Source: an uncultured Chloroflexia bacterium (lineage in GTDB: Bacteria; Chloroflexota; Anaerolineae; Anaerolineales; Anaerolineaceae). Taken from it: a stretch of DNA of 32,000 nt. Positions within the stretch are counted from its first letter, which is position 1; each line of letters starts with the position of its first letter. The DNA lies in the NCBI GenBank assembly GCA_963704755.1, contig OY969938.1, forward strand, positions 1,230,001 to 1,262,000, read 5' to 3'. The position numbers were made by a program, and so were the translations under genes. Under the pieces are notes generated by a model. It did not search any database, had not been told where the DNA came from, and saw nothing but the letters and a program-made list of their open reading frames with translations. Of this stretch, positions 444 through 31,716 are shown piece by piece.

Positions 444-3245
444 TTAATTTTGCTCACAGGAATAGCGAAAGACTAAATCGCCTGATTGGAGTTGATTGTT
501 AATCTGCATTATTCCATCTGGATATTTATCATCTTTACTATAATACAACACAAAGGCATTATTTTGAGTGCCCTGAGGAGCAGAAATAACTATTTTTAGA
601 GATTGATCAATCGATACCTCTAACGGTGGTATCTTAAAATAATGTAGCTGATTATCTGCCATATTCAAAGTAGATAATTGAGTAGTATCTAGTGTTTTTC
701 CAAATTGATCCAGGATTTGAATTGTAATCGGAGGTGTATCCTTACGGCCAAAAGTACCGAAGAAGAGACCTATCTGATCAATGTCTCCTTGGCACTCTGA
801 GAGAAAGCTTTGGCTAACCTTGTCACCAGCGACAATATTCGCAGTCACTGTCTGGGGGGGAATACCGGACAAGGGATATCCACAAGCATATGGCCAATTG
901 GCTTGATTGTCAGCCTGAATAAATTCAATACGTTTGAATTGCAAAGAATAAGTTTCTGGTCCATCGTTGGATATCCGAATTTCGATACCAGTAACATGAA
1001 TACCTGGGGACAAGTTTAGGAGTCGCAGTGGGTAAGTATAAGTATGTTCTTCACCATCTGCCAACAGTGGAAGATTAAATCCGGTTACCTGTCCATTGTC
1101 GAGTGTAAAAATAATAAACAGAGATCTGGGGCTCAACTCAGGTTCAACTGCAAGAGAAATAAGAAAATCCGAATATGCGGGTAAGCATGCGCTGTTGGAT
1201 AAATTTAACTTAAAAGCAGGGTTAGAACCAATAGTCCATTCCGACGGATCAGCTTTTGACTGAGTGGCATTCGTGCCGGAAAGAACATAAGGATTTGTGA
1301 AAAGATTTACTGATTCCGAATCCTGGACAGCAGAAGCACTTTCTGCCAGATCTGTGTTATCAGGAGCAATTACCAACGATTCTGATTGAATGGGCGTTGG
1401 ATTAACATGCAAATCAATGTGTGGAAATTGGAACATCGCCCAAGCACCCGCACCATTTTCATCACCTTTGGTCTCGAAATCAATTATGATTTGTTGGCCA
1501 GCATAGGCAGATAATGGGATATTTACCGGGGTCCATGTATGCGAGTCGGGTTGCAGCGTTTTTTCGAATACAACCTGCTGATTGTCACTTGAGGTCAGTC
1601 GGATGGTAAAAGTAACTTTATTTTCTGTGGCTGAGGAAACACCCGCTTGATAATTAATCCCGACAGCAGTTTTTAGATCCGCTGAAATTAGCTGCTCTGG
1701 AATCTCAACCGTCCAACTGACCGTATGTGGTGCCGGGATCAAAACATCCAAGTGTTTATAATCCGACCATTGGGACATTGCTCCATCCAAACCAGTCCAC
1801 CAGGTAATATCAGTAGGCAGAGCATCTGTTTTTACCCGATCTTCAAAAACATACTCGCCCTGAAGAGTTTTTTCCTGGTAAGGACCAAATACAGAAAGGT
1901 CGTACTGCTCTAGAGGAGATGCCAGACTTGTGAGAAAACCGTTGTTACCGACCCCCCATTGGAAAACACTGCCTTCGCAATAGGTTGGCGCTGTCTGGTA
2001 ATATTGCAGACAAGCAGCCGAGGCTGGACTACGCGAAAGAAGGTGAAAAATCTTATCCTCGTAAGAGAGATTAGTATTTATCCAAAAAACCGTTATTGAC
2101 AAGAAATATATAATTACGGTTCCATATTTTAGAATCAGAAAAATCTTTTTATCGGCAGTTTGGAGAAATGCGATTGAAAAAACCAGTCCGGATAATCCTA
2201 TCCAGAACGGTGCTCCATCAACTATATACCAGGATGCAATAGAAGTTCGAACAATACTTATCTGCCAAATAGAGCCTAGTCCAAAAAGAGCCAAGCAAAG
2301 TTGAGGAAAGTAGTCGATGATAAATCGAAACCGGAACAATTTAAATAAAAGAATAATACATACGATAAACAGAGTTAAGCCAGCTAAACCAGTTAAAGTT
2401 TGATGAGATTTAAACAGTTGGACAACCTCGTTTGGAGTTAGTCCAATTCCATTGGAAAAAAACATCCCTAATAGATGAATAACAAATTTATAGTTAAAGA
2501 AATTAAAAGGAAGCGCTTCTGCCTTTCCACCTGTCTGAATATATTGGAAATATTCTAAATAGGGAACACAAACGGCGCAAAAACCTATGAACCAAATTCC
2601 CACAAATAGTTTCTTTCGAAAATGAAGCAACAAAGCAAGAAAAGCCAAAGGAATCACGATCAATCCAGCGCCATAAGACCAAGCAGCGATGATCATACCA
2701 ATTATTAAAAGAGCTAACCCTTTGTATGAACCCGGAAAAAATTTATAACCTACCAGGCAGATTGTCAGGCCAAATAAGGTTGTCGCTGGATAGATTGATG
2801 CCTGACCAAAAGTGAATGAAGCTATTTGTGTAAAAGAAAACCCTATCCCGGAAAGAATAACCAACAACCAAATTTTATTTTTAGAAAAAGAAATTCCCGC
2901 AAATAAAAAATAAATTATCAAGACCGAGATTGACGTAATGATGATAGAAAACATCATCTCGGCATATACATTCCACGAAAAGAACTTGGCAATGAAGGTC
3001 ATCACCATAAATGTTAGGGGTTCGCATTGATCTCTGAAACAGGCATTGCCCAAATTGCTTAGATGAAATCCATTATTGAGATAATTAATAACTACCGGTG
3101 TAAATGCCCGATAGTCATTGGATAGATTATTCATTCCAGTGGTTAAAATAATTTTTATCAATCTGATTACAGGGATCAGACTAATCAAAACTAACAAAAT
3201 TGGTAAGATAATGTTAATGGACTTTCTTGTGATTCCACGATGCAT
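444..3245 (-). CDS. Polytopic membrane glycosyltransferase-like protein: GT-C / ArnT-PMT-YfhO-like N-terminal ~430 aa, fused to a ~500-aa hydrophilic beta-rich extracytoplasmic region
   Basis: 933-aa ORF. The N-terminal part is a run of hydrophobic helices (INIILPILLVLISLIPV, MFSIIITSISVLIIYFLFAGI, LALLIIGMIIAAWSYGAGLIVIPLAFLALLL, LAGLTLFIVCIILLF, etc.). The C-terminal half has no TM segments. The start ATG overlaps the stop of the upstream GT2 (TAATG at 3243-3247). Family assignment rests on architecture and gene context only. Confidence 0.55.
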   Translation of the reverse strand: MHRGITRKSINIILPILLVLISLIPVIRLIKIILTTGMNNLSNDYRAFTPVVINYLNNGFHLSNLGNACFRDQCEPLTFMVMTFIAKFFSWNVYAEMMFSIIITSISVLIIYFLFAGISFSKNKIWLLVILSGIGFSFTQIASFTFGQASIYPATTLFGLTICLVGYKFFPGSYKGLALLIIGMIIAAWSYGAGLIVIPLAFLALLLHFRKKLFVGIWFIGFCAVCVPYLEYFQYIQTGGKAEALPFNFFNYKFVIHLLGMFFSNGIGLTPNEVVQLFKSHQTLTGLAGLTLFIVCIILLFKLFRFRFIIDYFPQLCLALFGLGSIWQISIVRTSIASWYIVDGAPFWIGLSGLVFSIAFLQTADKKIFLILKYGTVIIYFLSITVFWINTNLSYEDKIFHLLSRSPASAACLQYYQTAPTYCEGSVFQWGVGNNGFLTSLASPLEQYDLSVFGPYQEKTLQGEYVFEDRVKTDALPTDITWWTGLDGAMSQWSDYKHLDVLIPAPHTVSWTVEIPEQLISADLKTAVGINYQAGVSSATENKVTFTIRLTSSDNQQVVFEKTLQPDSHTWTPVNIPLSAYAGQQIIIDFETKGDENGAGAWAMFQFPHIDLHVNPTPIQSESLVIAPDNTDLAESASAVQDSESVNLFTNPYVLSGTNATQSKADPSEWTIGSNPAFKLNLSNSACLPAYSDFLISLAVEPELSPRSLFIIFTLDNGQVTGFNLPLLADGEEHTYTYPLRLLNLSPGIHVTGIEIRISNDGPETYSLQFKRIEFIQADNQANWPYACGYPLSGIPPQTVTANIVAGDKVSQSFLSECQGDIDQIGLFFGTFGRKDTPPITIQILDQFGKTLDTTQLSTLNMADNQLHYFKIPPLEVSIDQSLKIVISAPQGTQNNAFVLYYSKDDKYPDGIMQINNQLQSGDLVFRYSCEQN

Positions 3246-4003
3246 TAGGAAACCTTATCCCAAAACAATCGAATCTGCACGACCATAATCAAATACTTCC
3301 ATCCCCGCTTCAGATACTGAGAGAGCGTTGTCCCCGTTTTTGATTCGCCACTTCGTCGTGGCTGTGCTGTGTATGGAAGTTCACATACTCGAAAGCCCAA
3401 CCGGATCGCTCGATAAATAAAACCGATGAAGTATTCTCCATAATCACCGTTCAAGGTTATTCTGTCGAAGACCTGGCGACGGACAGCCACAAAACCGCTG
3501 GTATAGTCCGAAAATGAAGGCTTTAAAAGGAATCGGATTCCCCAGTTCAACATCCGACTGAGAATTAGTTGAATTGGTCCGCCCTTACCAATTCTGTCCT
3601 CACCACCGCCAACCACATATCGGGAATTAACAACGATATCGAAGCCCTGATCGATCATGTAAAGTAGCTGAGGAATTTTTTCCGGTGGATGTGAGAAATC
3701 ACAGTCCATCCAGACCACTGTATCGAACCTGGCCACGGAAATACCCTCACAGATTGAAGCCGTTAAACCATGATCCTTTTCCCGCCTAATCACACGCAAT
3801 ATGTCAGAATTTGCATTCGGGGTCTGAGCGGCAATTTTCCAGGTGCCATCGGGAGAATCATCATCCACCACAATAATTTCGAAATCATATTTTCCATTAT
3901 TGTTGAGAGCATTTATCACGGATTGGATAAGCGCTTGGATGTTCCCGGCTTCGTTGAGGGTGGGCATAATGACTGAAACACCTGGTTGCCATGTATTCTT
4001 CAT
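3245..4003 (-). CDS. GT2 polyprenyl-phosphate glycosyltransferase (DPM1/Ppm1/ArnC-like catalytic domain, no obvious TM anchor)
   Basis: 252 aa with GT2 hallmarks in DPM1-like order: VSVIMPTLNEAGNI, IIVVDDDSPDGT, WMDCDFSHPPEKIP (DxD), NSRYVVGGG, DYTSGF, RRSGESK. ATGA overlap with the upstream GNAT stop (4000-4003). Confidence 0.8.
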   Translation of the reverse strand: MKNTWQPGVSVIMPTLNEAGNIQALIQSVINALNNNGKYDFEIIVVDDDSPDGTWKIAAQTPNANSDILRVIRREKDHGLTASICEGISVARFDTVVWMDCDFSHPPEKIPQLLYMIDQGFDIVVNSRYVVGGGEDRIGKGGPIQLILSRMLNWGIRFLLKPSFSDYTSGFVAVRRQVFDRITLNGDYGEYFIGFIYRAIRLGFRVCELPYTAQPRRSGESKTGTTLSQYLKRGWKYLIMVVQIRLFWDKVS

Positions 4004-4614
4004 AAAGTGATCCTTTTTGTTAAAATGACGCTGTCAACCCTAGATTCCATTTCTCTGAAGCCTAGCGCTTTATAAAACTGGCGTGCCTGATCGTTTTCGA
4101 TCAAAGTGTCCAATCGATAATAATTAACCTTATTTTGAATAAAGTAATTCTCCAGCGCAAATACAAGATGCTTTCCGACACCTTGCCTCTGGCACAATTT
4201 CGAGACGGCAATTGTGGTCAAAATTGCATTGACTGGTTCATCCTCAACGGCTATTGGCCGGGCAATTATATCGCCATTTTTTAATACACTTAATAAGTAA
4301 GGCCGTTTACAAATTCCGAAGGCGATCCTTAAGGCCGCTTTCGCGGTCAGAGATTGCCGGAGTAGCGCCTTAGTCTGGTCGAGATGGACGGTGCCGCTTA
4401 CAACACCAACGGGATGGTTCTCGAAATATGCAACCCCGACGTAACAACCCTCCCCTCGAGCCATCAAGGAATAAATAAACCGCAAATGCTCTTTGCCAAT
4501 TAAGCTGTTGAATGTATATTCCAAGACATCTTGATGAATACGAATCACCTCATCTGCATTTGTTTCATCAAATGGTCGGATACTAATTAACTGGTCTAGA
4601 GGGTTGATCTCCAT
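4000..4614 (-). CDS. GNAT-family N-acetyltransferase (candidate amino-sugar N-acetyltransferase by context)
   Basis: 204 aa. GNAT motif A QRQGVGKHLV, followed by ...ARQFYKALGF. TAATG-type 1-nt overlap with the aminotransferase stop at 4614. Confidence 0.75.
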   Translation of the reverse strand: MEINPLDQLISIRPFDETNADEVIRIHQDVLEYTFNSLIGKEHLRFIYSLMARGEGCYVGVAYFENHPVGVVSGTVHLDQTKALLRQSLTAKAALRIAFGICKRPYLLSVLKNGDIIARPIAVEDEPVNAILTTIAVSKLCQRQGVGKHLVFALENYFIQNKVNYYRLDTLIENDQARQFYKALGFREMESRVDSVILTKRITL

Positions 4615-5744
4615 TAACTGCGGTCTCGGGCAATCAGAGAGCTTTTAACCGCTTCGACCACAGTTAATTGTTGATCTTCGGTGAGTGCTAGTCCGCTAGG
4701 GATATAGAAACCCCTGCGAGAAAGTTTTTCTGTTACAGGATAGCTATCATGCTGAAACATGCCAGCCTTGCGGAAAACAGGCTGCTCATGCATGCCCCAG
4801 AAAAACGGTCGTGCACCAACCCCACGTTCTGACAAGCGCGAAATCATTTCATCAGCGTCAAAGGGGATTGAATCATCTAAGACGATGCCGTATACCCAGT
4901 ATATATTCTGGGCATAATCAGTTTCAGTGATTGGGATTTGTAAACCTTCCACCGAAGATAATTGCCGGGTATAAAATTTACCTATCTTGCGCTTACGAAT
5001 GATAAAATCGTCCATCCGTTCCAACTGGGCTACCCCTAACGCTGCTTGCATATTAGTCATGCGAAAATTAAAGCCCAATTCTTCATGTATGTAACGACGC
5101 TTTTGGAAGCAAAGATTACGCAATGAGCGGCAGTATTGCGCTAACTCAGGATCATCCGTTACAACCATCCCCCCTTCGCCAGTCGTAACATGTTTATTCG
5201 GATAAAAACTAAAGCCACTTACGCTGCCAAAACTGCCACAAGGCTTACCGCGATAGGTTTGACCGTGCATCTCAGCAGCGTCTTCAATAATAAGTAGGTT
5301 ATAACGATCAGCAATTTCGTTTATGGCATCCATATCTGTCGGCAATCCATAGATGTGAACAACCATAATCGCTTTTGTCTTATTGGTAATTTTCTCTTCG
5401 ACCAAAGCCGGGGCCATATTCCACGTATTTGGATCAGCGTCCACCAAAACAGGGATCAGACCGGCACGAATGATTGCCGCTGCACAAGAAATAATTGTAA
5501 ACGAAGGGAGTATTACTTCACTGCCCGGCTCGATTCGAAGAGACTTAACAGCGATTTCCAAAGCTACGGTGCCGTTTGAGACAGCAATGCCAAACCGTCG
5601 GCCAACCTTTTGACAAAAGTTATCTTCAAATTTCTTGATAAACGGCCCTTCAGAAGAAATCCAACCTGTATCAATACATTCCATTAAATATTTTTTTTCA
5701 TTGCCAGATAAATCGGGTTCATTAACCGGTATGAATTTTTGCAT
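4614..5744 (-). CDS. DegT/DnrJ/EryC1/StrS-family PLP-dependent sugar aminotransferase
   Basis: Family-typical N-terminus MQKFIPVNEPDLSGNE and TGWISSEGPFIKKFE. PLP-lysine region SFYPNKHVTTGEGGMVVT. The ORF is open to 5756 (TTG), but ATG at 5744 is preceded by GGAGGG, so it is preferred. Confidence 0.9.
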   Translation of the reverse strand: MQKFIPVNEPDLSGNEKKYLMECIDTGWISSEGPFIKKFEDNFCQKVGRRFGIAVSNGTVALEIAVKSLRIEPGSEVILPSFTIISCAAAIIRAGLIPVLVDADPNTWNMAPALVEEKITNKTKAIMVVHIYGLPTDMDAINEIADRYNLLIIEDAAEMHGQTYRGKPCGSFGSVSGFSFYPNKHVTTGEGGMVVTDDPELAQYCRSLRNLCFQKRRYIHEELGFNFRMTNMQAALGVAQLERMDDFIIRKRKIGKFYTRQLSSVEGLQIPITETDYAQNIYWVYGIVLDDSIPFDADEMISRLSERGVGARPFFWGMHEQPVFRKAGMFQHDSYPVTEKLSRRGFYIPSGLALTEDQQLTVVEAVKSSLIARDRS

Positions 5745-5758
5745 ATAACCCTCCAATG

Positions 5759-6193
5759 TTAATCGTATACAATTTTGTCCTTTGAAATTGGATCAAATTT
5801 AACCTTATCATTCTCTTCACCGCCATAAGGTCCTTGCTTGATCTCGATCATCTCTACTTCTTCTAAAACCTCGAATCCATGTCCCCCAAAAGCAAGCAGA
5901 ATGATATCACCGGCTTCAAGTATTCGGCTCTTAATATAACCCTTCTCGTTATCATAAAAATCCACCCGGAGGCTCCCTCGTTTGATCACTAATACCTCTT
6001 GCGTATATTCTACACTCCGGAGCGAAAGCAAGTGGGTATGGGGTTTAATAATTTTGCCTGTATGGTGATGCATATACGCTAACTGTTGCGAATAATCTGG
6101 GGGGGTCAGAAACTTCAGGCCTTCTTCGTTATGATCTTTTGAAATAATGATAGCCAAAGTGTCGTGGTCAGAGGTAACGTACTCGATTGTCAT
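5759..6193 (-). CDS. Cupin-fold protein, FdtA/QdtA/WxcM-like sugar ketoisomerase candidate
   Basis: 144 aa. KPHTHLL...TQEVLVIKRGSLRVDFYD...GDIILLAFGGHGFEVLEE resembles the HxH...vLvcl.Gs.rv..dD pattern of dTDP-sugar 3,4-ketoisomerases. AGGAG lies upstream of the ATG. Sits immediately upstream of the aminotransferase. Confidence 0.5.
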   Translation of the reverse strand: MTIEYVTSDHDTLAIIISKDHNEEGLKFLTPPDYSQQLAYMHHHTGKIIKPHTHLLSLRSVEYTQEVLVIKRGSLRVDFYDNEKGYIKSRILEAGDIILLAFGGHGFEVLEEVEMIEIKQGPYGGEENDKVKFDPISKDKIVYD

Positions 6194-6208
6194 TTTAGAT
6201 CTCCTCGT

Positions 6209-6388
6209 TTATTCTGTACCTGAGAAACCCAAAGGTAAATGCGTAAATAATACGTTAGTATTATTAATATACAACAATGAATGGTGAAATTCTTTTGTTA
6301 TTGACCAAATTAATATGCCAATATAAATTGTCGCAATGCCAGGCAACTTAATTTTAATCTTAAAGTAACTATGGAAAATCTCTGTCAT
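6209..6388 (-). CDS. Possible small membrane protein (59 aa), below the ORF-track cutoff
   Basis: Hand translation of the minus strand gives MTEIFHSYFKIKIKLPGIATIYIGILIWSITKEFHHSLLYINNTNVLFTHLPLGFSGTE. It has one hydrophobic segment and fills the only gap in the island operon. No homology recognised. Confidence 0.2.
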   Translation of the reverse strand: MTEIFHSYFKIKIKLPGIATIYIGILIWSITKEFHHSLLYINNTNVLFTHLPLGFSGTE

Positions 6389-6401
6389 AAATACGCCTAG
6401 G

Positions 6402-8510
6402 TTAATTTAATAATTTCCGGAATATATTGATGTTTGATAATTGCATATCCAGTTTGTCTTTGCCTTGAATATTTTCTGGTATCTTTTCCAAAGAAGCAAA
6501 AAATTCTATCGTGTTATATTTAGTATCGTAAAAATCGACAACTTCAAAGTCCAACAGATCTAAACGAGAGAATAACTCTATGAGGTTTAGGAAGGAAATG
6601 GGAGTAAATACATTTACATGTGCATCATGATAGGTCGCTTCATCAAAAGACTGTTTAGATATATTGAAAGCATGTATTAACAGCATTTCGTTAATCTTCA
6701 TTTCGGAAGCAACTTTTTTTTGCCATGCAGATGTTACATCAATTTTTTGGGAAAGGGCAATGTAATCAAAAACTGCTTGAGGAGAAGGTTCTCTATTATG
6801 TCGGAAATATGCCTCGATAATCGCACCAGGAGAACTAAGTTCTCGATAATAGTCAAAAGTAAACCGTTTATCCGGGATAGCAAGCGAAAGGACTCCGCCC
6901 GCTATCAATATTTCGGAAATTTCTTTTAACCACCCTAACATATCGGGAACATGTTCGATGACGTGCGAGGCAATTACGTAATCAAAAAGTTTTCCATCAG
7001 TTAATTCAATTAATTCTTTATTTCCCCAAATATAATCAACGTCTACGATATTTTTAATTTTTACATAAGTATCATTTTTGTAAATTTCTCTCAACACATC
7101 CGCCGGCGCATAGTCGACATATTTTATAAGGCCACCGCTTTCATCTTTTGTCACGACAGGATCTGCGAGAGGACCTATTTCTATTCCCGCATCGGTCAGG
7201 GGGGAAATCTTGCTAAGCAGTTTTTGTTTTCGGTTTTTTTTCTCTGTGGATAGTGAATACCTAAAAGATAATTCTGGAGTAATTTCCGAGACCCAATCTG
7301 AGCGGAGATGAACATTCTCATTGGGATATATATTTGAATCATTTTCATGGATAGAAAATAGGGAATTGTTTAATTTCTCGGCAAAATTTTCATAAGAATA
7401 TTCAACAAGGCTTCGGTCATATGCTACTTGAGCAATTTCCGAATATGTTGGTAAAGAATAAATACAGTTTTGGATTGCTGCAAACCACTCATGTGATTTT
7501 GCTAAATATCCATTAGCTGGAGGATCAATAGCATTAATAAACGTATACGTGGGTGTGGCGATAGATAATGTGCCAACGATGCCAGCTTCAAAATATTTTA
7601 GTTCCGATTTACAATTGGTAAACTCATTATCTTGTAAGGGGACGAGGTTGATTTCAACTTCCCCTATATATCTTTGTAAATTAATAAAGTCTTGCAGTGG
7701 AATCATTTCTATCCTGGATTGATAGTTTTGCAACGGTCCCTTTATATCAATATAACCGACGATCCGTACAACTAACCTGGGATCAGATTCCAGCAAATTA
7801 ACCAGTGAATCAGAAATGATTTCCAAATCTTTATTATGAGATGGCGTGCCGCTAAAATATCCAAGGTGAATTTGGTCATTTCGGGCAAAATTTTTCGCTT
7901 TTTTCTCCTCAAATATCTTCTCTGAATAATTCAACTGCTCACGGTTCAAAAAATTGGGAATAATAGAGACATTTTTCTTTGTAAAGGCTTGGATCTGTGC
8001 TGCAAGATACTGATTCGTCGTTATTGCTTCATCACATAACTTTAATGTCATTCCCAACCGCGCGGTATAAGCAGCCCAAAAATCCCAGACGTTGGGATGG
8101 TTGAGATCCTGATCCAGTGTATCCAACAGCAAATGGATGTAATCTGTATTAAATACGAGATCGTCAACGTCGAAAAAGACTTTTTTCCCTTTGTTCCGTG
8201 CTTTGGTAATTGCGTGGTTTAGCTTATCGTTATACCGCGATCGACAAATAACCAGTACGTCAGAAATATCGATAACTTTATCCAAATCATCGATTTCCCT
8301 TTGGGTAAAATATGCCGCAGACACACCATTTTTTGCAGATTGAAGTGTCTGGATCATGTTATAAACACGGTATCGAAAAGTGCTGTTATCCGGAGTTTCG
8401 TAAAAATAAGCTACCCTTTGCTCACCACGAGACAATGTCTTAATTCTTTCTTCGAATGAAGACACCCAGGGATCGTGATACGGGAAAGGCGGGGTATCAA
8501 TGAGAAACAT
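6402..8510 (-). CDS. Bifunctional glycosyltransferase (N-terminal GT-B-like) / class I SAM-dependent methyltransferase (C-terminal)
   Basis: 702 aa. The N-terminal part has KKVFFDVDDLVFN, HLGYFSGTPSHNKD and NLVPLQDNEFTNCKSELKYFEAG. The C-terminal part has IEIGPL...FDYVIASHVIEHVPDMLGWLKEISEILIAGGVLSLAIPDKRFTFDY. 14-nt overlap with the upstream gene. Confidence 0.7.
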   Translation of the reverse strand: MFLIDTPPFPYHDPWVSSFEERIKTLSRGEQRVAYFYETPDNSTFRYRVYNMIQTLQSAKNGVSAAYFTQREIDDLDKVIDISDVLVICRSRYNDKLNHAITKARNKGKKVFFDVDDLVFNTDYIHLLLDTLDQDLNHPNVWDFWAAYTARLGMTLKLCDEAITTNQYLAAQIQAFTKKNVSIIPNFLNREQLNYSEKIFEEKKAKNFARNDQIHLGYFSGTPSHNKDLEIISDSLVNLLESDPRLVVRIVGYIDIKGPLQNYQSRIEMIPLQDFINLQRYIGEVEINLVPLQDNEFTNCKSELKYFEAGIVGTLSIATPTYTFINAIDPPANGYLAKSHEWFAAIQNCIYSLPTYSEIAQVAYDRSLVEYSYENFAEKLNNSLFSIHENDSNIYPNENVHLRSDWVSEITPELSFRYSLSTEKKNRKQKLLSKISPLTDAGIEIGPLADPVVTKDESGGLIKYVDYAPADVLREIYKNDTYVKIKNIVDVDYIWGNKELIELTDGKLFDYVIASHVIEHVPDMLGWLKEISEILIAGGVLSLAIPDKRFTFDYYRELSSPGAIIEAYFRHNREPSPQAVFDYIALSQKIDVTSAWQKKVASEMKINEMLLIHAFNISKQSFDEATYHDAHVNVFTPISFLNLIELFSRLDLLDFEVVDFYDTKYNTIEFFASLEKIPENIQGKDKLDMQLSNINIFRKLLN

Positions 8511-26644: not shown

Positions 26645-26837
26645 TTCACCACGGAGGCACAGAGGGCACGGAGAAGAAGGAAGAGTTCAAGAAGAGGAAA
26701 GAAGTTTTTAAAGCTGAGCGGCCTCGGTCTGGAGACCGAGGCCGATCTACTTTAGACTGTCTGTCTTTTAATCGCAGTTTCTTTCTTCTCTTCCTTTTCT
26801 CTTTTCTTCTCCGTGCGCTCTGTGCCTCCGTGGTTAA
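26645..26837. repeat. ~190-bp MITE-like nested-hairpin element (full-length member of the ACCACGGAGGCACAGA family)
   Basis: 31-bp terminal inverted repeats (29/31): TTCACCACGGAGGCACAGAGGGCACGGAGAA at 26645-26675, and the reverse complement of 26807-26837. A purine-rich arm (26676-26704) faces a pyrimidine-rich arm (26774-26806). Central perfect hairpin: CGGCCTCGGTC-TGGA-GACCGAGGCCG (26719-26744). Confidence 0.8.
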
Positions 26838-26929
26838 CTTCTTCTTCCTGCCATGGTTTTCTTTCTCCCTGCGGTGATAGAATTGACATCATCCAGGCCT
26901 CATCCATCCCTCGACCTGAGCGAACCGGT

Positions 26930-29656
26930 ATGACCCTCCCCCTGTTGCAAACGAAAATGACCATTCCCGCCGTCCGCCGGCAGGCGATTGCCCGCCCGCG
27001 CCTGCTCGCCCGCCTGGACGAAGTTGTTCAGAACGGCTACAAGCTGGCCTTGCTGTCCGCCCCGGCCGGCTACGGCAAAACTTCGCTCCTGGCGGCCTGG
27101 GCGGCCGCTCTGCCCGGCCGCTTCTCCATCCGGCCGGCCTGGCTCAAGCTCGAGCCGACCGAAAATGACCCCCGCCGCTTCTGGAACTACAGCCTGGCGG
27201 CTTTACAGCAGGGATATCCGCAAGTCGGCCAGTCCGCAGCCAGCCTGCTGCATGCCGACCCGGGCGTGCCGATCGAAAACGTGCTGACCCTCTGGCTGGC
27301 CGACCTGGAGCAGCTTGACGAAAAGGTCGTCTGGGTACTGGATGATTTTCACCAGATCCAGTCGCTCGACATCTTGAAGGGGCTGGCCTTCTTTCTAGAA
27401 CACCTGCCCGCCATGGTTCACCTGGTGATTGCCGGGCGCAGCGATCCCTTCCTGCCTCTGCCTCGTTTGCGCGCCCGCAATGAAGTCCTCGAACTGCGCC
27501 TGGCCGACCTGGCTTTCGACCCGGTCGAAGCAGCCGCCTTTTTTACCCAGACCATGCACCTGGATCTGCCCGAAGGGCTGGTTGGCGACATCACCGGCCA
27601 GACCCGCGGGTGGATCGCCGGTTTACAGCTTGCCGGCCTGTCCCTGCAGCGCAATCCGGCCACCAACGCCCGCCCGAGCGGGGCAACCTACGCCGCCGCA
27701 GACCTGTTCCAGTTCTTCAAACAAGAGGTGCTGGCCAGTTTGCCGGAAGACCGGCAGCGTTTCCTGTTTGAAATATCCATATTGGATTTATTTTCGGCTG
27801 ACCTTTGCCAGCAGGTTACCCGCCGCAGCGACAGTGCGGCCCTGTTGGAGCAGTTCGAGCGGGAAAATCTGTTCCTTTCTGCGCTGGACTTGCAGGGAAC
27901 TGTTTTTCAGTTTCACCCGCTCTTCCGCGAGCTGCTCAACCAGGAGCTCCGCCTTTCAGTTTCAACCGGCGAAATTTTGGAACTGCACCAACGGGCTGCC
28001 GACTGGCTGGAACAACACGGCCAGGCCGAAGCAGCTTTCAGCCAGGCCCTGGCCGGCGCAGCTTATCCCCAGGCCGAACGCCTGCTCGTGACCCTCGGCC
28101 TGGAACGCATTCTGGCCGGAGAAGGTCTATCGATCTATAATTTTTGCCTGGCGTTCCCGGAAGCCTATCGTCGTGAAAGCGCACAGGTCAACCTGTTGGC
28201 CGGCTGGGCTCTGCTGGCCGCGGCCCGCTTCGAGCAGGTCGAGCCCTACCTGGCTGCTGCCGAGGCGGCACAGACCGGCTCAGGGGCGATGAGCGACGAC
28301 GTACGCGGCCAGCTCGCGGCCATACGCGCCACGGTGGCATTCAATTTGAAGGACATATCCCGGTCCATGGACCAGGCCAACCTGGCCTTGACTTTGCTTC
28401 CGGAAGAGGCCTACCTGGTGCGCAGTGTGGTCATGCTGGACCTGGCCGATTCGCTGCTGATCCAGGGTGACATCGATGCGGCGCGGCTGCGCTACCTGGA
28501 AACCGCCGAATACGCCGGACGGGCCGGCAACCGTTTTGTGCAGATCAATTGCCTGGCGATGGCCGGACGCGCCTTATTCTGGCAGGGCCGCCTGCATGAA
28601 GCTGAAACGATGGCCAGGCAGGCGATTCATTTAGCCGAAAGCACCGGCCAGGCCAACTTGCCGATCCTGGGGCTGGTCGAGGCGGTGCTGGCCGAGATCC
28701 GCCTGGCCCGCCAGCAGCCCGAACAAGCCTGGGAATGGATCACCAAGAGCCTGGATCACTTTCGGATGTGGGGTCATCCCAACCACATCGTCCAGGCCAC
28801 CCTGGCCGAGATTGAAATCCTGGCGGCCCTGGGAAAACTGGATGAAGCCCTGGATCAAGTCATCCAGGTTCGTTTGCTGATCCAGCAGCAGCGGCTGATG
28901 CTATCCCAAAGTCGGGCCGAATCTGCGGCAGCCGGGATCTATTTGCAAAAGGGCCAGGCCGGCCTGGCGCGGGAAACCCTGCTGGCCGCCGGGCTGGTCA
29001 CGAAAACCGGCGCAGAAGACCCGGCTTACCAGCCGGTTCCCTTTAGCGACCCGATCCAAATTTTTAGCTACCCGATCGGCATCCGTTTGCTGTACGAGCT
29101 GGGCCAGGCAAACCCGGCCCTGGCCTGGCTGGAAGCCTGGCTGGCACCGGTCAAGGCCAAAGACTTTCGCGGGCAGGCCATTCGCCTGCTCACCTTACGC
29201 GCCCTGATCGAACGGCAGCAAGGCCGGCTGGCAGCAGCCCTGGTCACTCTCGAACAGGCCTTGAGCCAGGCCGAGCCGGAAGGATTTATCCATGCCTTCG
29301 TGAAAGAAGGCCAACCCGTCCAGGAGCTGATCCAGGCCTGGCTGGGGCTGCCCGACCGCCCAGATGTTCTGGTTGTGTTTGCCCGGCGCCTGCTGCTTTG
29401 TTTCAACGGCACAACGCTTGGCCAGGCTGAACCGCTCACTCCAGCCCTGAACAGCGAGACTTTGAGCCCGCGCGAAGGGGAGGTACTGCGGCTGGTCGCT
29501 GCAGGGATGACCAACGAGGACATCGCCCGCGAACTGTACGTGTCCACCAACACGATCAAGACCCATCTCAAGCGTATTTACGACAAGTTGGGGGTCAATG
29601 ACCGCTGGGAAGCCGTCCGGGTGGCCCGACTGACGGGATTGAAATCCCGAAATTGA
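26930..29656 (+). CDS. MalT/LAL-type large ATP-binding LuxR-family transcriptional regulator (STAND NTPase + helical repeats + C-terminal HTH)
   Basis: N-terminus MTLPLLQTKMTIPAVRRQAIARPRLLARL, typical of MalT-like proteins. Walker A LLSAPAGYGKTSL. Walker B VWVLDDFH. C-terminal LSPREGEVLRLVAAGMTNEDIARELYVSTNTIKTHLKRIYDKLGV. The ORF extension from 26813 runs into the repeat and is discounted. Confidence 0.88.
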   Translation: MTLPLLQTKMTIPAVRRQAIARPRLLARLDEVVQNGYKLALLSAPAGYGKTSLLAAWAAALPGRFSIRPAWLKLEPTENDPRRFWNYSLAALQQGYPQVGQSAASLLHADPGVPIENVLTLWLADLEQLDEKVVWVLDDFHQIQSLDILKGLAFFLEHLPAMVHLVIAGRSDPFLPLPRLRARNEVLELRLADLAFDPVEAAAFFTQTMHLDLPEGLVGDITGQTRGWIAGLQLAGLSLQRNPATNARPSGATYAAADLFQFFKQEVLASLPEDRQRFLFEISILDLFSADLCQQVTRRSDSAALLEQFERENLFLSALDLQGTVFQFHPLFRELLNQELRLSVSTGEILELHQRAADWLEQHGQAEAAFSQALAGAAYPQAERLLVTLGLERILAGEGLSIYNFCLAFPEAYRRESAQVNLLAGWALLAAARFEQVEPYLAAAEAAQTGSGAMSDDVRGQLAAIRATVAFNLKDISRSMDQANLALTLLPEEAYLVRSVVMLDLADSLLIQGDIDAARLRYLETAEYAGRAGNRFVQINCLAMAGRALFWQGRLHEAETMARQAIHLAESTGQANLPILGLVEAVLAEIRLARQQPEQAWEWITKSLDHFRMWGHPNHIVQATLAEIEILAALGKLDEALDQVIQVRLLIQQQRLMLSQSRAESAAAGIYLQKGQAGLARETLLAAGLVTKTGAEDPAYQPVPFSDPIQIFSYPIGIRLLYELGQANPALAWLEAWLAPVKAKDFRGQAIRLLTLRALIERQQGRLAAALVTLEQALSQAEPEGFIHAFVKEGQPVQELIQAWLGLPDRPDVLVVFARRLLLCFNGTTLGQAEPLTPALNSETLSPREGEVLRLVAAGMTNEDIARELYVSTNTIKTHLKRIYDKLGVNDRWEAVRVARLTGLKSRN

Positions 29657-30244: not shown

Positions 30245-30342
30245 GATGGACACAGATAAGACAAAAAGTTAAGCTATATAAGGTCAGCGGCGAAGCCGCT
30301 GACCTTATATAGCAGATTTCTTATCTTTCATCTGTGTCCATC
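30245..30342. repeat. Nested-hairpin intergenic element: outer 13-bp arms plus an inner 19-bp perfect palindrome with GAA triloop
   Basis: Outer arms: GATGGACACAGAT (30245-30257) with ATCTGTGTCCATC (30330-30342). Inner palindrome: GCTATATAAGGTCAGCGGC-GAA-GCCGCTGACCTTATATAGC (30273-30313). The inner centre GCGGCGAAGCCGC is identical to 20678-20690. Confidence 0.8.
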
Positions 30343-30375
30343 CGTGTATATCTCTGGCAAAAATGGAGATTTTCG

Positions 30376-31716
30376 ATGGAATCGAAACAAATGCACTACC
30401 GCAATTCCTCTCAAGACTTGATGAATTACATTACCCGCGCCAACGCGGACCAGCAACTGCACGGGATCATCTCTGTCCGCGGTCGCCTGGACGAACACAC
30501 GCTTCAATCGGCTATGCGCATTGCGATGGACCGCGAACCGGTGTTGGGCTGCCGCTTCGTCCAGCAGGACAACCATACCGGCTGGGAACGGCGCAGTGAC
30601 CTGGACCGGCTCGACCTGTGCCCGCTCATTCACCCGGCCGACCTCCGCGGCGAACTTAAGGCTTTCGTCACCACCCCGGCCGATCCCTGCCGGGACCCGC
30701 TGATCCAGGCCCGCCTCTTCCGCACCACCGCAGGCGACACCTTCTGTCTCAAGGTCAACCACGTGGCCGCCGACGGGGCCGGGACCAAGGAGATTGTTTA
30801 CCTGGTCGCGGACACCTACACCCGCCTGGTCGCCGACCCCTCTTACCGGCCCGGCCTGAGCAGGCCCGGCAAGCGCTCGCAATTGGGCCTGTTTCGCCAG
30901 GCCGGGTTGAAGAATCTGTTCAAGTACCGCCCGCGCAAATTGGGGCTGCCCTCCGGCGGGCGCTTCAGCCTGCCCTTCCACGGCAGCGAACCTGACGGCC
31001 GCGCGTTTGCCCTGCGCCAGGTTGATCCCGATACCTTCCGCATGCTCAAGGCCTATGGCAAGCGCCAGGGTGCGACGATCAACGATTTGATCCTGGCAGC
31101 TCTGTACAAAGCCCTGTTCAGCGTGGCCGAAACGCCCCAGTCCACAGCGCTGCCGGTGCAGGTCTCGATCGATCTGCGCCGCGCCTTGCCGTTCCATCAG
31201 CCCCAGCCGATCTGCAACCTGTCCGGTGCGCTCTTCCCGGCCATCCCATACCGGCCGGGTGCGTCCTACGAAAAAATCTTGAGCGATGTCCAGGCCCAGA
31301 TGAAGCGCTGGAAATCCGGCCGGCCCGGCCTGACCGGCGCCATGCTGATCGAGCTGGCCATGCTGCAGGGCTTTCACAAAGCCAACGCGATGCTTGGCCA
31401 GATGACCGCCGTGCGCAGCAACCAGGTCAACCCGCTGCTGCTGAGCAATTTCGGCCTAATGGACGAATCCCGGCTGGTCTTTGGCAGTGCGGAGATCGTC
31501 GATGCATACCTTCTCGGCCCGGTTATGTTCAAGCGGGGGCTGATGCTGACCGCAAGCACCTATGCGGACCGGCTCACCCTGGCCATCGGCTACTGCCAGG
31601 GCTGCATTTCAGCCAGCGTCATCGAAGCGATCCTGGAGCAGGTGTGGGTGGAGTTGCGGCAGGCTGGTGAATACGTGGGCGACGAAGCGCCGGCTTGCCA
31701 ACTTATTGGCTGGTAA
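30376..31716 (+). CDS. Stand-alone condensation-domain / WS-DGAT-PapA5-like acyltransferase (HxxxDG superfamily)
   Basis: 446 aa with catalytic-type motif LKVNHVAADGAG. ATG 30376 is preceded by GGAG. The ORF extension from 30334 starts inside the repeat arm. The long antisense ORF 30328-31377 is Ala/Gly/Arg-rich shadow. Confidence 0.6.
   Translation: MESKQMHYRNSSQDLMNYITRANADQQLHGIISVRGRLDEHTLQSAMRIAMDREPVLGCRFVQQDNHTGWERRSDLDRLDLCPLIHPADLRGELKAFVTTPADPCRDPLIQARLFRTTAGDTFCLKVNHVAADGAGTKEIVYLVADTYTRLVADPSYRPGLSRPGKRSQLGLFRQAGLKNLFKYRPRKLGLPSGGRFSLPFHGSEPDGRAFALRQVDPDTFRMLKAYGKRQGATINDLILAALYKALFSVAETPQSTALPVQVSIDLRRALPFHQPQPICNLSGALFPAIPYRPGASYEKILSDVQAQMKRWKSGRPGLTGAMLIELAMLQGFHKANAMLGQMTAVRSNQVNPLLLSNFGLMDESRLVFGSAEIVDAYLLGPVMFKRGLMLTASTYADRLTLAIGYCQGCISASVIEAILEQVWVELRQAGEYVGDEAPACQLIGW

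Follow-up and report, generated by a model that had tools for sequence, protein, structure and literature searches.

What is made by five tightly packed genes on the minus strand of a Chloroflexia genome, and where does the product go? The genes run from position 6193 to position 444 of a stretch of 32,000 nucleotides (contig OY969938.1 of assembly GCA_963704755.1, from an uncultured bacterium), which is in its whole length called the window. In the list of open reading frames (ORFs) they encode proteins of 144, 376 or 380 (depending on the start codon), 204, 252 and 933 amino acids. They constitute one conserved, translationally coupled module, and we think it probable that this module belongs to an Arn-like pathway which decorates a glycan outside the cytoplasm, and that it serves there to synthesise and transfer the donor. 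Gene order, coupling, family and fold assignments and the conserved genomic linkage are what the analysis shows, and from them we infer all of the chemistry, the identity of the sugar, the lipid carrier and the acceptor. The five genes are the following:

5759..6193, minus strand: cupin, 144 amino acids (cupin fold in the AlphaFold2 (AF2) model; no Pfam match)
4614..5744, minus strand: DegT-family pyridoxal phosphate (PLP) aminotransferase, 376 amino acids, GDP-perosamine-synthase-like (Pfam DegT_DnrJ_EryC1, 2.9e-118)
4000..4614, minus strand: GNAT N-acetyltransferase, 204 amino acids (Pfam Acetyltransf_1, 7.6e-13)
3245..4003, minus strand: GT2 glycosyltransferase, DPM1/DPMS-like, 252 amino acids (Pfam GT2, 8.5e-35)
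444..3245, minus strand: GT-C-like membrane protein, 933 amino acids (AF2 model and Foldseek)

The junctions were read directly from the strand. The cupin gene ends with TAA, followed by CATTGGAGGGTTAT and the ATG of the DegT gene; this gap measures 14 nt and has a GGAGG 5 nt ahead of the ATG at 5744. The ORF lister had begun the DegT gene at a TTG in position 5756 (4614-5756), but its true start is likely this ATG, with its preceding GGAGG. The DegT and GNAT genes overlap in TAATG, GNAT and GT2 in ATGA, and GT2 and the gene for the 933 amino acid protein again in TAATG. A first-pass annotation, made from the letters alone, had described this order and these junctions and had read them as one translational unit; the strand itself, the Pfam matches and the recurrence of the order elsewhere bear it out. 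A scan for promoters and terminators scored no better than shuffled sequence.

Three independent contigs from metagenomes, L006, L100 and L101, carry the five genes in identical order (L-numbers, from L001 to L101, denote the metagenomic and genomic loci used for comparison). Identity to the window proteins over these three contigs is 57-83% for the cupin, 68-84% for DegT, 39-64% for GNAT and 63-82% for GT2, while the 933 amino acid protein has 59% in L006, 34% in L100 and 33% in L101. The overlap of the GNAT stop with the GT2 start is kept in all four loci, and on each of the three contigs the homologue of the 933 amino acid protein comes directly after GT2. As the same five genes stand in the same order in spite of the 33-59% identity of their last product, the arrangement is beyond chance.

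The connection between the glycosyltransferase and the amino-sugar genes can be followed beyond these close relatives. An alignment of the GT2 was used as the sole anchor for a scan of metagenome contigs, in which 80 loci were kept and the window proteins were mapped by tblastn. In twenty-two loci the GT2 was flanked on either side by 1.5 kb or more, and in eleven of these its identity to the GT2 of the window was at least 46%. In ten of these eleven a perosamine-synthase-like DegT gene lies within 3 kb on the same strand. The cupin is likewise within 3 kb in eight of the ten, and in a ninth, L032, it is 3.2 kb away. The gene orders vary, and include cupin-DegT-GNAT-GT2, DegT-GNAT-GT2-cupin, GT2-cupin-DegT and GT2-DegT. 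GNAT stands between DegT and GT2 in L006, L100, L101, L020, L023, L032, L034, L057 and L063.

Further genes that bear on the pathway lie in the related modules or next to them. A GDP-mannose 4,6-dehydratase (Gmd; TIGR01472, 409-510 bits) is encoded within the module or next to it in L032, L083 and L038, and homologues of the L032 Gmd (51-66% identity) are found beside the module in L048, L039, L071 and L094. L032, L061 and L037 encode small proteins of four helices that resemble ArnE/ArnF. The multi-helix membrane proteins adjoining the modules differ from locus to locus, being PMT_2, DUF2079, DUF6798 or PIG-U/GT87-like proteins or proteins with no Pfam match. L032 holds the full series of cupin, Gmd, DegT, ArnF-like protein, GNAT, GT2 and DUF2079 protein. 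For a GT2 acting on the aminotransferase product, and for GDP-mannose as the starting point of the pathway, the linkage and the presence of Gmd in the modules are the strongest evidence. The GT-C-like partners seem to be interchangeable, with the donor cassette joined now to one and now to another. The first-pass annotation had proposed a polyprenyl-phosphate-linked acetamido-deoxyhexose as donor, and the linkage of the GT2 to amino-sugar genes in varied orders supports an amino or acetamido sugar carried on polyprenyl phosphate.

That the GT2 is a DPM1/ArnC-type enzyme acting on polyprenyl phosphate, as had been claimed, is supported by its relatives. Its best match in the PDB is the dolichol-phosphate mannose (Dol-P-Man) synthase of Pyrococcus furiosus (1.7e-33), followed by ArnC (about 1e-16) and GtrB, so that it does not fall among enzymes with non-lipid acceptors. 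The top NCBIfam families are PgfS, ArnC, AglJ and Dol-P hexose transferase, and for none of them does the score reach the equivalog cutoff. The protein has no transmembrane segment, the alignment to the synthase (query residues 8-236) spanning nearly all of its 252 amino acids, and a scan of loci for hydrophobic segments found none in most GT2 homologues of similar length. Polyprenyl-phosphate transferases lacking such an anchor include DPM1, the catalytic domain of Ppm1 and PpgS.

The residues of the GT2 were mapped by alignment onto those of the P. furiosus synthase (PfDPMS) for which functions are described, including the metal-coordinating Gln93 and Lys178, which contacts the mannosyl O4/O6 (PMC5526996), and their conservation was scored in 23 family members. 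Glu12, Asp39, Asp89/Asp91 of the DxD motif, His94, Arg117, Arg202, Glu206 and Lys208 of DPMS all have identical counterparts that are invariant in the 23 members. The DxD motif is D100-C-D102 opposite D89-A-D91 of DPMS, and R128, R216, E220, K222 and E18 correspond to Arg117, Arg202, Glu206, Lys208 and Glu12 of the acceptor-loop and phosphate-binding set. The counterpart of Ser135 is ambiguous, since it falls in a gapped loop. Two positions differ, Gln93 being replaced by Ser104 and Lys178 by Glu190, and both replacements are invariant in the subfamily. They are compatible with a sugar altered at C4/C6, the alignment at these sites being approximate, and S104 and E190 may be specificity determinants for an amino- or acetamido-deoxy sugar. 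The GT2 is accordingly proposed as a putative polyprenyl-phosphate amino-sugar synthase.

The profile searches suggested by the first-pass annotation identified DegT, GNAT and GT2 as predicted, and gave no Pfam match at all for the cupin and the 933 amino acid protein. The DegT match extends over 354 residues. Its best solved relative is the GDP-perosamine synthase of Caulobacter (3bn1; 2.5e-86, 293 bits, residues 5-366); the next PDB entry scores 243 bits, QdtB 205 and ArnB 185, a ranking which fixes neither regiochemistry nor nucleotide. The motif FSF(F/Y)xNK, FSFYPNK here and FSFFGNK in 3bn1, is conserved with its lysine, which we take to be the one that binds PLP. Among NCBIfam models the best is the LegC family with 332 bits, under its cutoff of 420, and the score is well under the thresholds for WecE. 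The LegC enzyme of Campylobacter likewise acts on a GDP-linked sugar. The adjoining GNAT protein also matches Acetyltransf_10 (3.2e-10) and Acetyltransf_7 (4.7e-10), and would be the enzyme that N-acetylates the amino sugar. The nearness of DegT to GDP-perosamine synthase and the Gmd genes within related modules make GDP-mannose the probable source of the sugar, which would be N-acetylperosamine-like and not a dTDP sugar.

The cupin is the least familiar of the three tailoring proteins. Its AF2 model (predicted local distance difference test (pLDDT) 91) is an all-beta cupin fold, and more than 7200 relatives were collected, at about 60% identity across phyla, none of which has a Pfam domain. 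Residues H43, H52, H54, E66, D78 and H105 are invariant, a His/Glu pattern that resembles that of metal-binding cupins. Its sole NCBIfam match is the WbuC cupin (28 bits, below the cutoff of 42). Neither sequence nor profile finds a relative in the PDB, and the profile brings up no ketoisomerase. None of 40 family members matches the Pfam FdtA family (PF05523), even at E values up to 1. Structural search gave only non-significant neighbours (all E at least 0.03), namely FdtD, FdtA, WlaRB, WbcA, RmlC-like proteins and metal cupins, with TM-scores of about 0.4 for FdtA, FdtD and WlaRB. The label FdtA/QdtA-like given in the first-pass annotation is rejected at the level of the family, because there is no sequence or profile relative in the PDB and the cupins found by Foldseek are non-significant. 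A role of the protein in isomerising or epimerising a GDP-4-keto-6-deoxyhexose is proposed instead.

Across many loci the cupin is consistently the partner of a perosamine-synthase-like DegT. This pairing also occurs away from any such GT2 in a cyanobacterium and in Ignavibacteria (cupin at L007 8001-8435 and L008 8001-8429); there the next genes encode a protein of about 270 amino acids that matches no Pfam family, then a methyltransferase and a glycosyltransferase.

For the 933 amino acid protein the evidence is structural. A word-indexed search gave 39 homologues, which served as the AF2 alignment and none of which carries a precomputed Pfam domain; an exhaustive profile search gave 326 representative clusters at E up to 1e-30 and 1604 at E up to 1e-10, most members having about 800 amino acids. 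The model (pLDDT 87, predicted TM-score 0.81) has 11 long helices in residues 2-391, with short helices (45-89) straight after helix 1 and a conserved predicted periplasmic segment, and a beta-rich part from about 450 to 933 with three beta-sandwich domains resembling carbohydrate-binding modules (CBMs). The membrane proteins among the top 50 Foldseek matches in the PDB are GT-C enzymes only: EmbC (3.3e-5), STT3A (5e-4), EmbA/B (5.2e-4) and ArnT (8.3e-4), the last with a moderate TM-score of 0.43 normalised to ArnT. The C-terminal part matches carbohydrate-binding and similar beta-sandwich proteins, and the family profile matches a fucolectin-type domain (4e-4). Of the two proteins singled out earlier for structural search, the larger thus agrees with the GT-C class that had been claimed for it, at moderate scores, and the 144 amino acid cupin gave the non-significant neighbours described above.

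In GT-C enzymes the catalytic acidic residue sits in the loop after helix 1. Here S42-N43-D44 directly after helix 1 is nearly invariant, D44 being kept in at least 90% of the 39 homologues. Searched as single sequence or as profile, the membrane domain has no match in Pfam, NCBIfam or the PDB. In hhalign comparisons of the family profile, single PMT_2 and DUF2079 proteins gave nothing significant; an alignment of eight PMT_2 proteins gave a colinear but weak match over columns 42-356 (E 0.0022, 12.8% probability) that places D44 opposite the loop-1 Asp. With moderate confidence the protein can be said to have a GT-C-like fold, and by these searches it belongs to no described GT-C sequence family. 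It is proposed to be an extracytoplasmic transferase, and there are precedents for GT-C enzymes whose CBMs hold the acceptor polymer in EmbA-C, AftD and the founder of GT136 (PMC11127046).

Two other loci show the company kept by this family. In L011, a contig of a metagenome-assembled genome (isolate STL-UBA1), three paralogues lie within 16 kb (1-2193, 9914-12391 and 13334-15712), and among them are two short GT2 genes as well as genes for a PMT_2 protein and an MBOAT acyltransferase. In L003, from Anaerolineae, the run at 7349-17082 comprises a GT2, a PMT_2 protein, the homologue of the 933 amino acid protein, a Dpy19-like membrane protein, a GT4 and a second PMT_2 protein, and is flanked by a sulfotransferase and a sulfatase.

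Put together, these assignments suggest the following route. A Gmd, presumably encoded elsewhere in the genome, would form GDP-4-keto-6-deoxy-D-mannose, which the metal-type cupin may isomerise or epimerise. The perosamine-synthase-like DegT would transaminate the keto sugar and GNAT would N-acetylate the resulting amino sugar. The GT2 would then move the acetamido-dideoxyhexose (N-acetylperosamine or an isomer) onto polyprenyl phosphate at the inner membrane face, a flippase would carry the lipid-linked sugar across the membrane, and the GT-C-like enzyme would pass it on to an acceptor glycan bound by its beta-sandwich domains.

The acceptor may be sought among the neighbours. Directly upstream of the module and on the same strand are two genes for large glycosyltransferases, and beyond them a split transposase:

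6402..8510, minus strand: 702 amino acid protein, GT1-like in residues 1-386 and ending in a methyltransferase domain (Pfam methyltransferase matches, weak Glyco_trans_1_4)
8497..11007, minus strand: 836 amino acid protein with N-terminal Methyltransf_24 and a WsaF-like (rhamnosyltransferase-type) glycosyltransferase (Pfam)
11254..12457, minus strand: split ISAs1-family transposase in two adjacent ORFs (NCBIfam transpos_ISAs1, 3.6e-43 and 5.1e-11)

The Pfam matches of the 836 amino acid protein are WsaF_C (4.8e-45), WsaF_N (3e-14) and Methyltransf_24 (2.1e-29). Orthologues of residues 1-386 of the 702 amino acid protein adjoin the module on L006, L100 and L101 (64-76% identity), and orthologues of residues 376-836 of the larger protein are found on L100 and L101 (55-56% identity); WsaF-like and GT1-like genes go with the module on all three contigs. 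As orthologues of both glycosyltransferase parts accompany the module on these contigs, the conserved set is one of seven genes. The WsaF-like protein probably builds the acceptor polymer. In another locus a 41%-identical relative comes after rmlCBAD, a WsaF-like gene and genes for a Wzm/Wzt-type ABC transporter, and rmlC and rmlD follow the relatives in Spirulina sp. CCY15215 (L010) and Cyanobacteria SBLK (L012). Because WsaF-like companions are always present with this version of the module, and because of these rml, WsaF and Wzm-Wzt neighbours, the acceptor is probably a rhamnose polymer made by the adjacent WsaF-like and GT1-like transferases.

In the window both upstream glycosyltransferases are fused to methyltransferase domains, and the L100 and L101 orthologues, of 387 (GT1-like) and 456-458 amino acids (WsaF-like), lack these domains. 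Such fusions recall the methylating chain terminators of ABC-transporter-dependent glycan pathways.

Several observations weigh against the proposed route. By tblastn the window has neither Gmd nor a small flippase, and no nucleotidyltransferase is found among the window ORFs scanned, so that the gaps which the first-pass annotation had pointed out are real; taken with L006, L100 and L101, none of these loci encodes Gmd, GDP-mannose pyrophosphorylase (manC) or a flippase. At a GT2 identity of 44% or less the linkage to DegT drops to four of eleven loci. The synthesis of perosamine has no need of a cupin. The GT-C assignment comes from a predicted structure whose matches score moderately, and no significant sequence link goes with it. 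Finally, the family of the 933 amino acid protein is not tied to this donor, since its members in L001, L010, L012 and L016 have no such GT2 nearby.

Of the other explanations, the one that survives best is that two pathways share the cluster, the sugar of cupin, DegT and GNAT being used by a cytoplasmic transferase (WsaF-like, GT1-like or other) and the GT2 making polyprenyl-phosphate mannose or a neutral hexose for the GT-C. Mixing of this kind is common in glycan clusters, the best solved relative of the GT2 is a true Dol-P-Man synthase, and in L007 and L008 the cupin-DegT pair stands beside conventional transferases and away from this GT2. We nevertheless regard it as unlikely, as the GT2 subfamily stays near DegT and cupin through different gene orders, membrane partners and surroundings, the GNAT-GT2 overlap is retained in the window and its three closest relatives, and the invariant Ser104 and Glu190 depart from DPMS at just the residues Gln93 and Lys178.

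Somewhat more doubtful still is that the 933 amino acid protein is no single-sugar transferase, and is either an oligosaccharyltransferase-like mover of a lipid-diphosphate-linked glycan or a non-catalytic anchor or scaffold that binds rhamnan. The presence of STT3 among its structural matches would fit the former, no characterised GT-C family is linked to its own by sequence, and the members in L001, L010, L012 and L016 sit with rml genes and lack a DPM1-like GT2. Against this, its start overlaps the stop of the GT2 (TAATG) and its gene follows that of the GT2 on L006, L100 and L101; the near-invariant Asp follows helix 1, in a loop where the catalytic sites of GT-C enzymes also have theirs; and elsewhere the donor module adjoins recognised GT-C families (PMT_2) and other multi-helix membrane proteins.

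That the lipid-loaded sugar is a dTDP-3-acetamido-3,6-dideoxyhexose (FdtABC/QdtABC type) or dTDP-Fuc4NAc (WecE/WecD type), the models on which the first-pass annotation had drawn, is very improbable: the gene content fits in outline (small cupin, DegT, acetyltransferase), ketoisomerases are among the weak structural neighbours of the cupin, and its HxH (H52, H54) is positioned like the H49/H51 in the titles of FdtA mutant entries, but none of the 40 family members compared matches FdtA and the structural matches are non-significant, the DegT scores for GDP-perosamine synthase, QdtB and WecE favour the first, gmd and not rmlA/rmlB occurs in the related modules, and the GT2 is nearest to an enzyme using GDP-mannose.

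The preferred reading, an Arn-like donor and transfer arm, can be compared with known systems. The Arn (PmrHFIJKLM) pathway adds 4-amino-4-deoxy-L-arabinose to lipid A by means of ArnB, ArnA with its formyltransferase domain, ArnC, ArnD, ArnT and ArnE/F. As in Arn, one operon here combines a DegT aminotransferase, an N-acyltransferase, a lipid-phosphate GT2 and a GT-C that would transfer outside the cytoplasm, and the related modules, though not the window, carry ArnE/ArnF-like four-helix proteins and PMT_2 GT-Cs. The differences are several. The donor here probably derives from GDP-mannose through Gmd and the perosamine-synthase-like DegT and in Arn from UDP-glucuronate; a GNAT acetyltransferase takes the place of the formyltransferase; no ArnD-type deacylase is found in the window or among the proteins scanned; the GT2 is short, of DPM1 type and without membrane helices; the GT-C is of an unclassified family with beta-sandwich domains; there is an extra cupin; and the likely acceptor is a rhamnose polymer and not lipid A.

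The perosamine pathways offer a parallel for the tailoring enzymes. GDP-perosamine and N-acetylperosamine (Gmd, Per, PerB/WbdR) are made in Caulobacter, E. coli O157 and Vibrio cholerae O1, and the present locus shares with them the DegT, the Gmd of related modules and an N-acetyltransferase that comes after the DegT. In those pathways the products go to cytoplasmic transferases, and the acetyltransferase of Caulobacter is a left-handed beta-helix enzyme; here a GNAT protein and a cupin are encoded, and it is polyprenyl phosphate that appears to receive the product. The 3,4-ketoisomerases FdtA, QdtA and WlaRB are likewise small cupins beside DegT and acetyltransferase genes and are weak structural neighbours, from which the present cupin differs in the missing sequence-family match, in its metal-cupin-like His/Glu pattern and in a GDP-sugar rather than dTDP-sugar context. 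Of DPMS, DPM1 and Ppm1, whose products are used by PMT and other GT-C enzymes, DPMS aligns with the GT2 over its whole catalytic domain, with DxD, the Arg/Glu/Lys of the acceptor loop and the phosphate-binding Arg conserved; the GT2 differs in the two replacements and in its genomic tie to an aminotransferase.

Decoration of a finished polymer by a polyprenyl-phosphate sugar synthase, a flippase and a GT-C is the scheme of the three-component systems GtrA/GtrB/Gtr*, GacI-L, CsbB/GtcA/YfhO and the Citrobacter ribofuranose system with GT136 (PMC11127046), and the last of these also gives precedent for a GT-C whose carbohydrate-binding domains hold the acceptor backbone. Decoration of a rhamnan backbone is the streptococcal and lactococcal pattern. 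Their sugars are common ones (Glc, GlcNAc, Gal, Ribf), for which the operon needs no nucleotide-sugar tailoring genes of its own. The present module differs in its aminotransferase, acetyltransferase and cupin, and it has no adjacent flippase gene. The combination found here had been taken as undescribed. This is too strong, as Arn, with ArnB, the formyltransferase domain of ArnA, ArnC, ArnT and ArnE/F, and the three-component systems share its logic. The design is not unprecedented, since Arn already joins these steps; it is the enzyme families that are uncharacterised. A literature search found no link of perosamine to polyprenyl-phosphate transferases or to GT-C enzymes, its coverage being incomplete and thus no proof of absence.

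A wider claim, to which we give about an even chance, is that the module represents a widespread, undescribed Arn-like system that puts a GDP-mannose-derived 4-amino- or 4-acetamido-4,6-dideoxyhexose on polyprenyl phosphate, perhaps after rearrangement by the cupin as a new family of metal-dependent enzymes, and delivers it to surface glycans through interchangeable GT-Cs including a new CBM-bearing family of several hundred 50%-identity clusters. The relatives come mainly from environmental metagenomes, and those named include Chloroflexota and cyanobacteria. If this were so, a polyprenyl-phosphate sugar of the N-acetylperosamine type would join the short list of donors for extracytoplasmic decoration, and the Arn design would have a GDP-sugar counterpart common among environmental bacteria. 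Candidate functions would also follow for three uncharacterised families, the cupin (more than 7000 relatives), as a candidate enzyme acting on GDP-4-keto-6-deoxymannose, the conserved DPM1-like GT2 subfamily and the GT-C-like family (326 clusters).

The base composition of the window changes along its length. The part from 444 to 11007 has about 40% GC and the remainder 52-63%, the rise occurring at the ISAs1 transposase; on the other border of this island is an unassigned ORF fragment (21-311). No repeats bracketing the island were found. The contigs of L006, L100 and L101 have 41-43% GC. Given the low GC content and the similar values of the orthologous contigs, the seven-gene glycan island was probably acquired horizontally. 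In the part of higher GC are an ABC transporter and housekeeping genes that include gyrB and plsY.

Two further genes lie in the distal part of the window. Both are seemingly unrelated to the five-gene module. The gene for a 947 amino acid regulator of the MalT/LuxR type (26813-29656) is followed by an ORF at 30334-31716 whose product of 460 amino acids weakly matches condensation and PapA acyltransferase domains; this ORF overlaps an antisense ORF of 349 amino acids.

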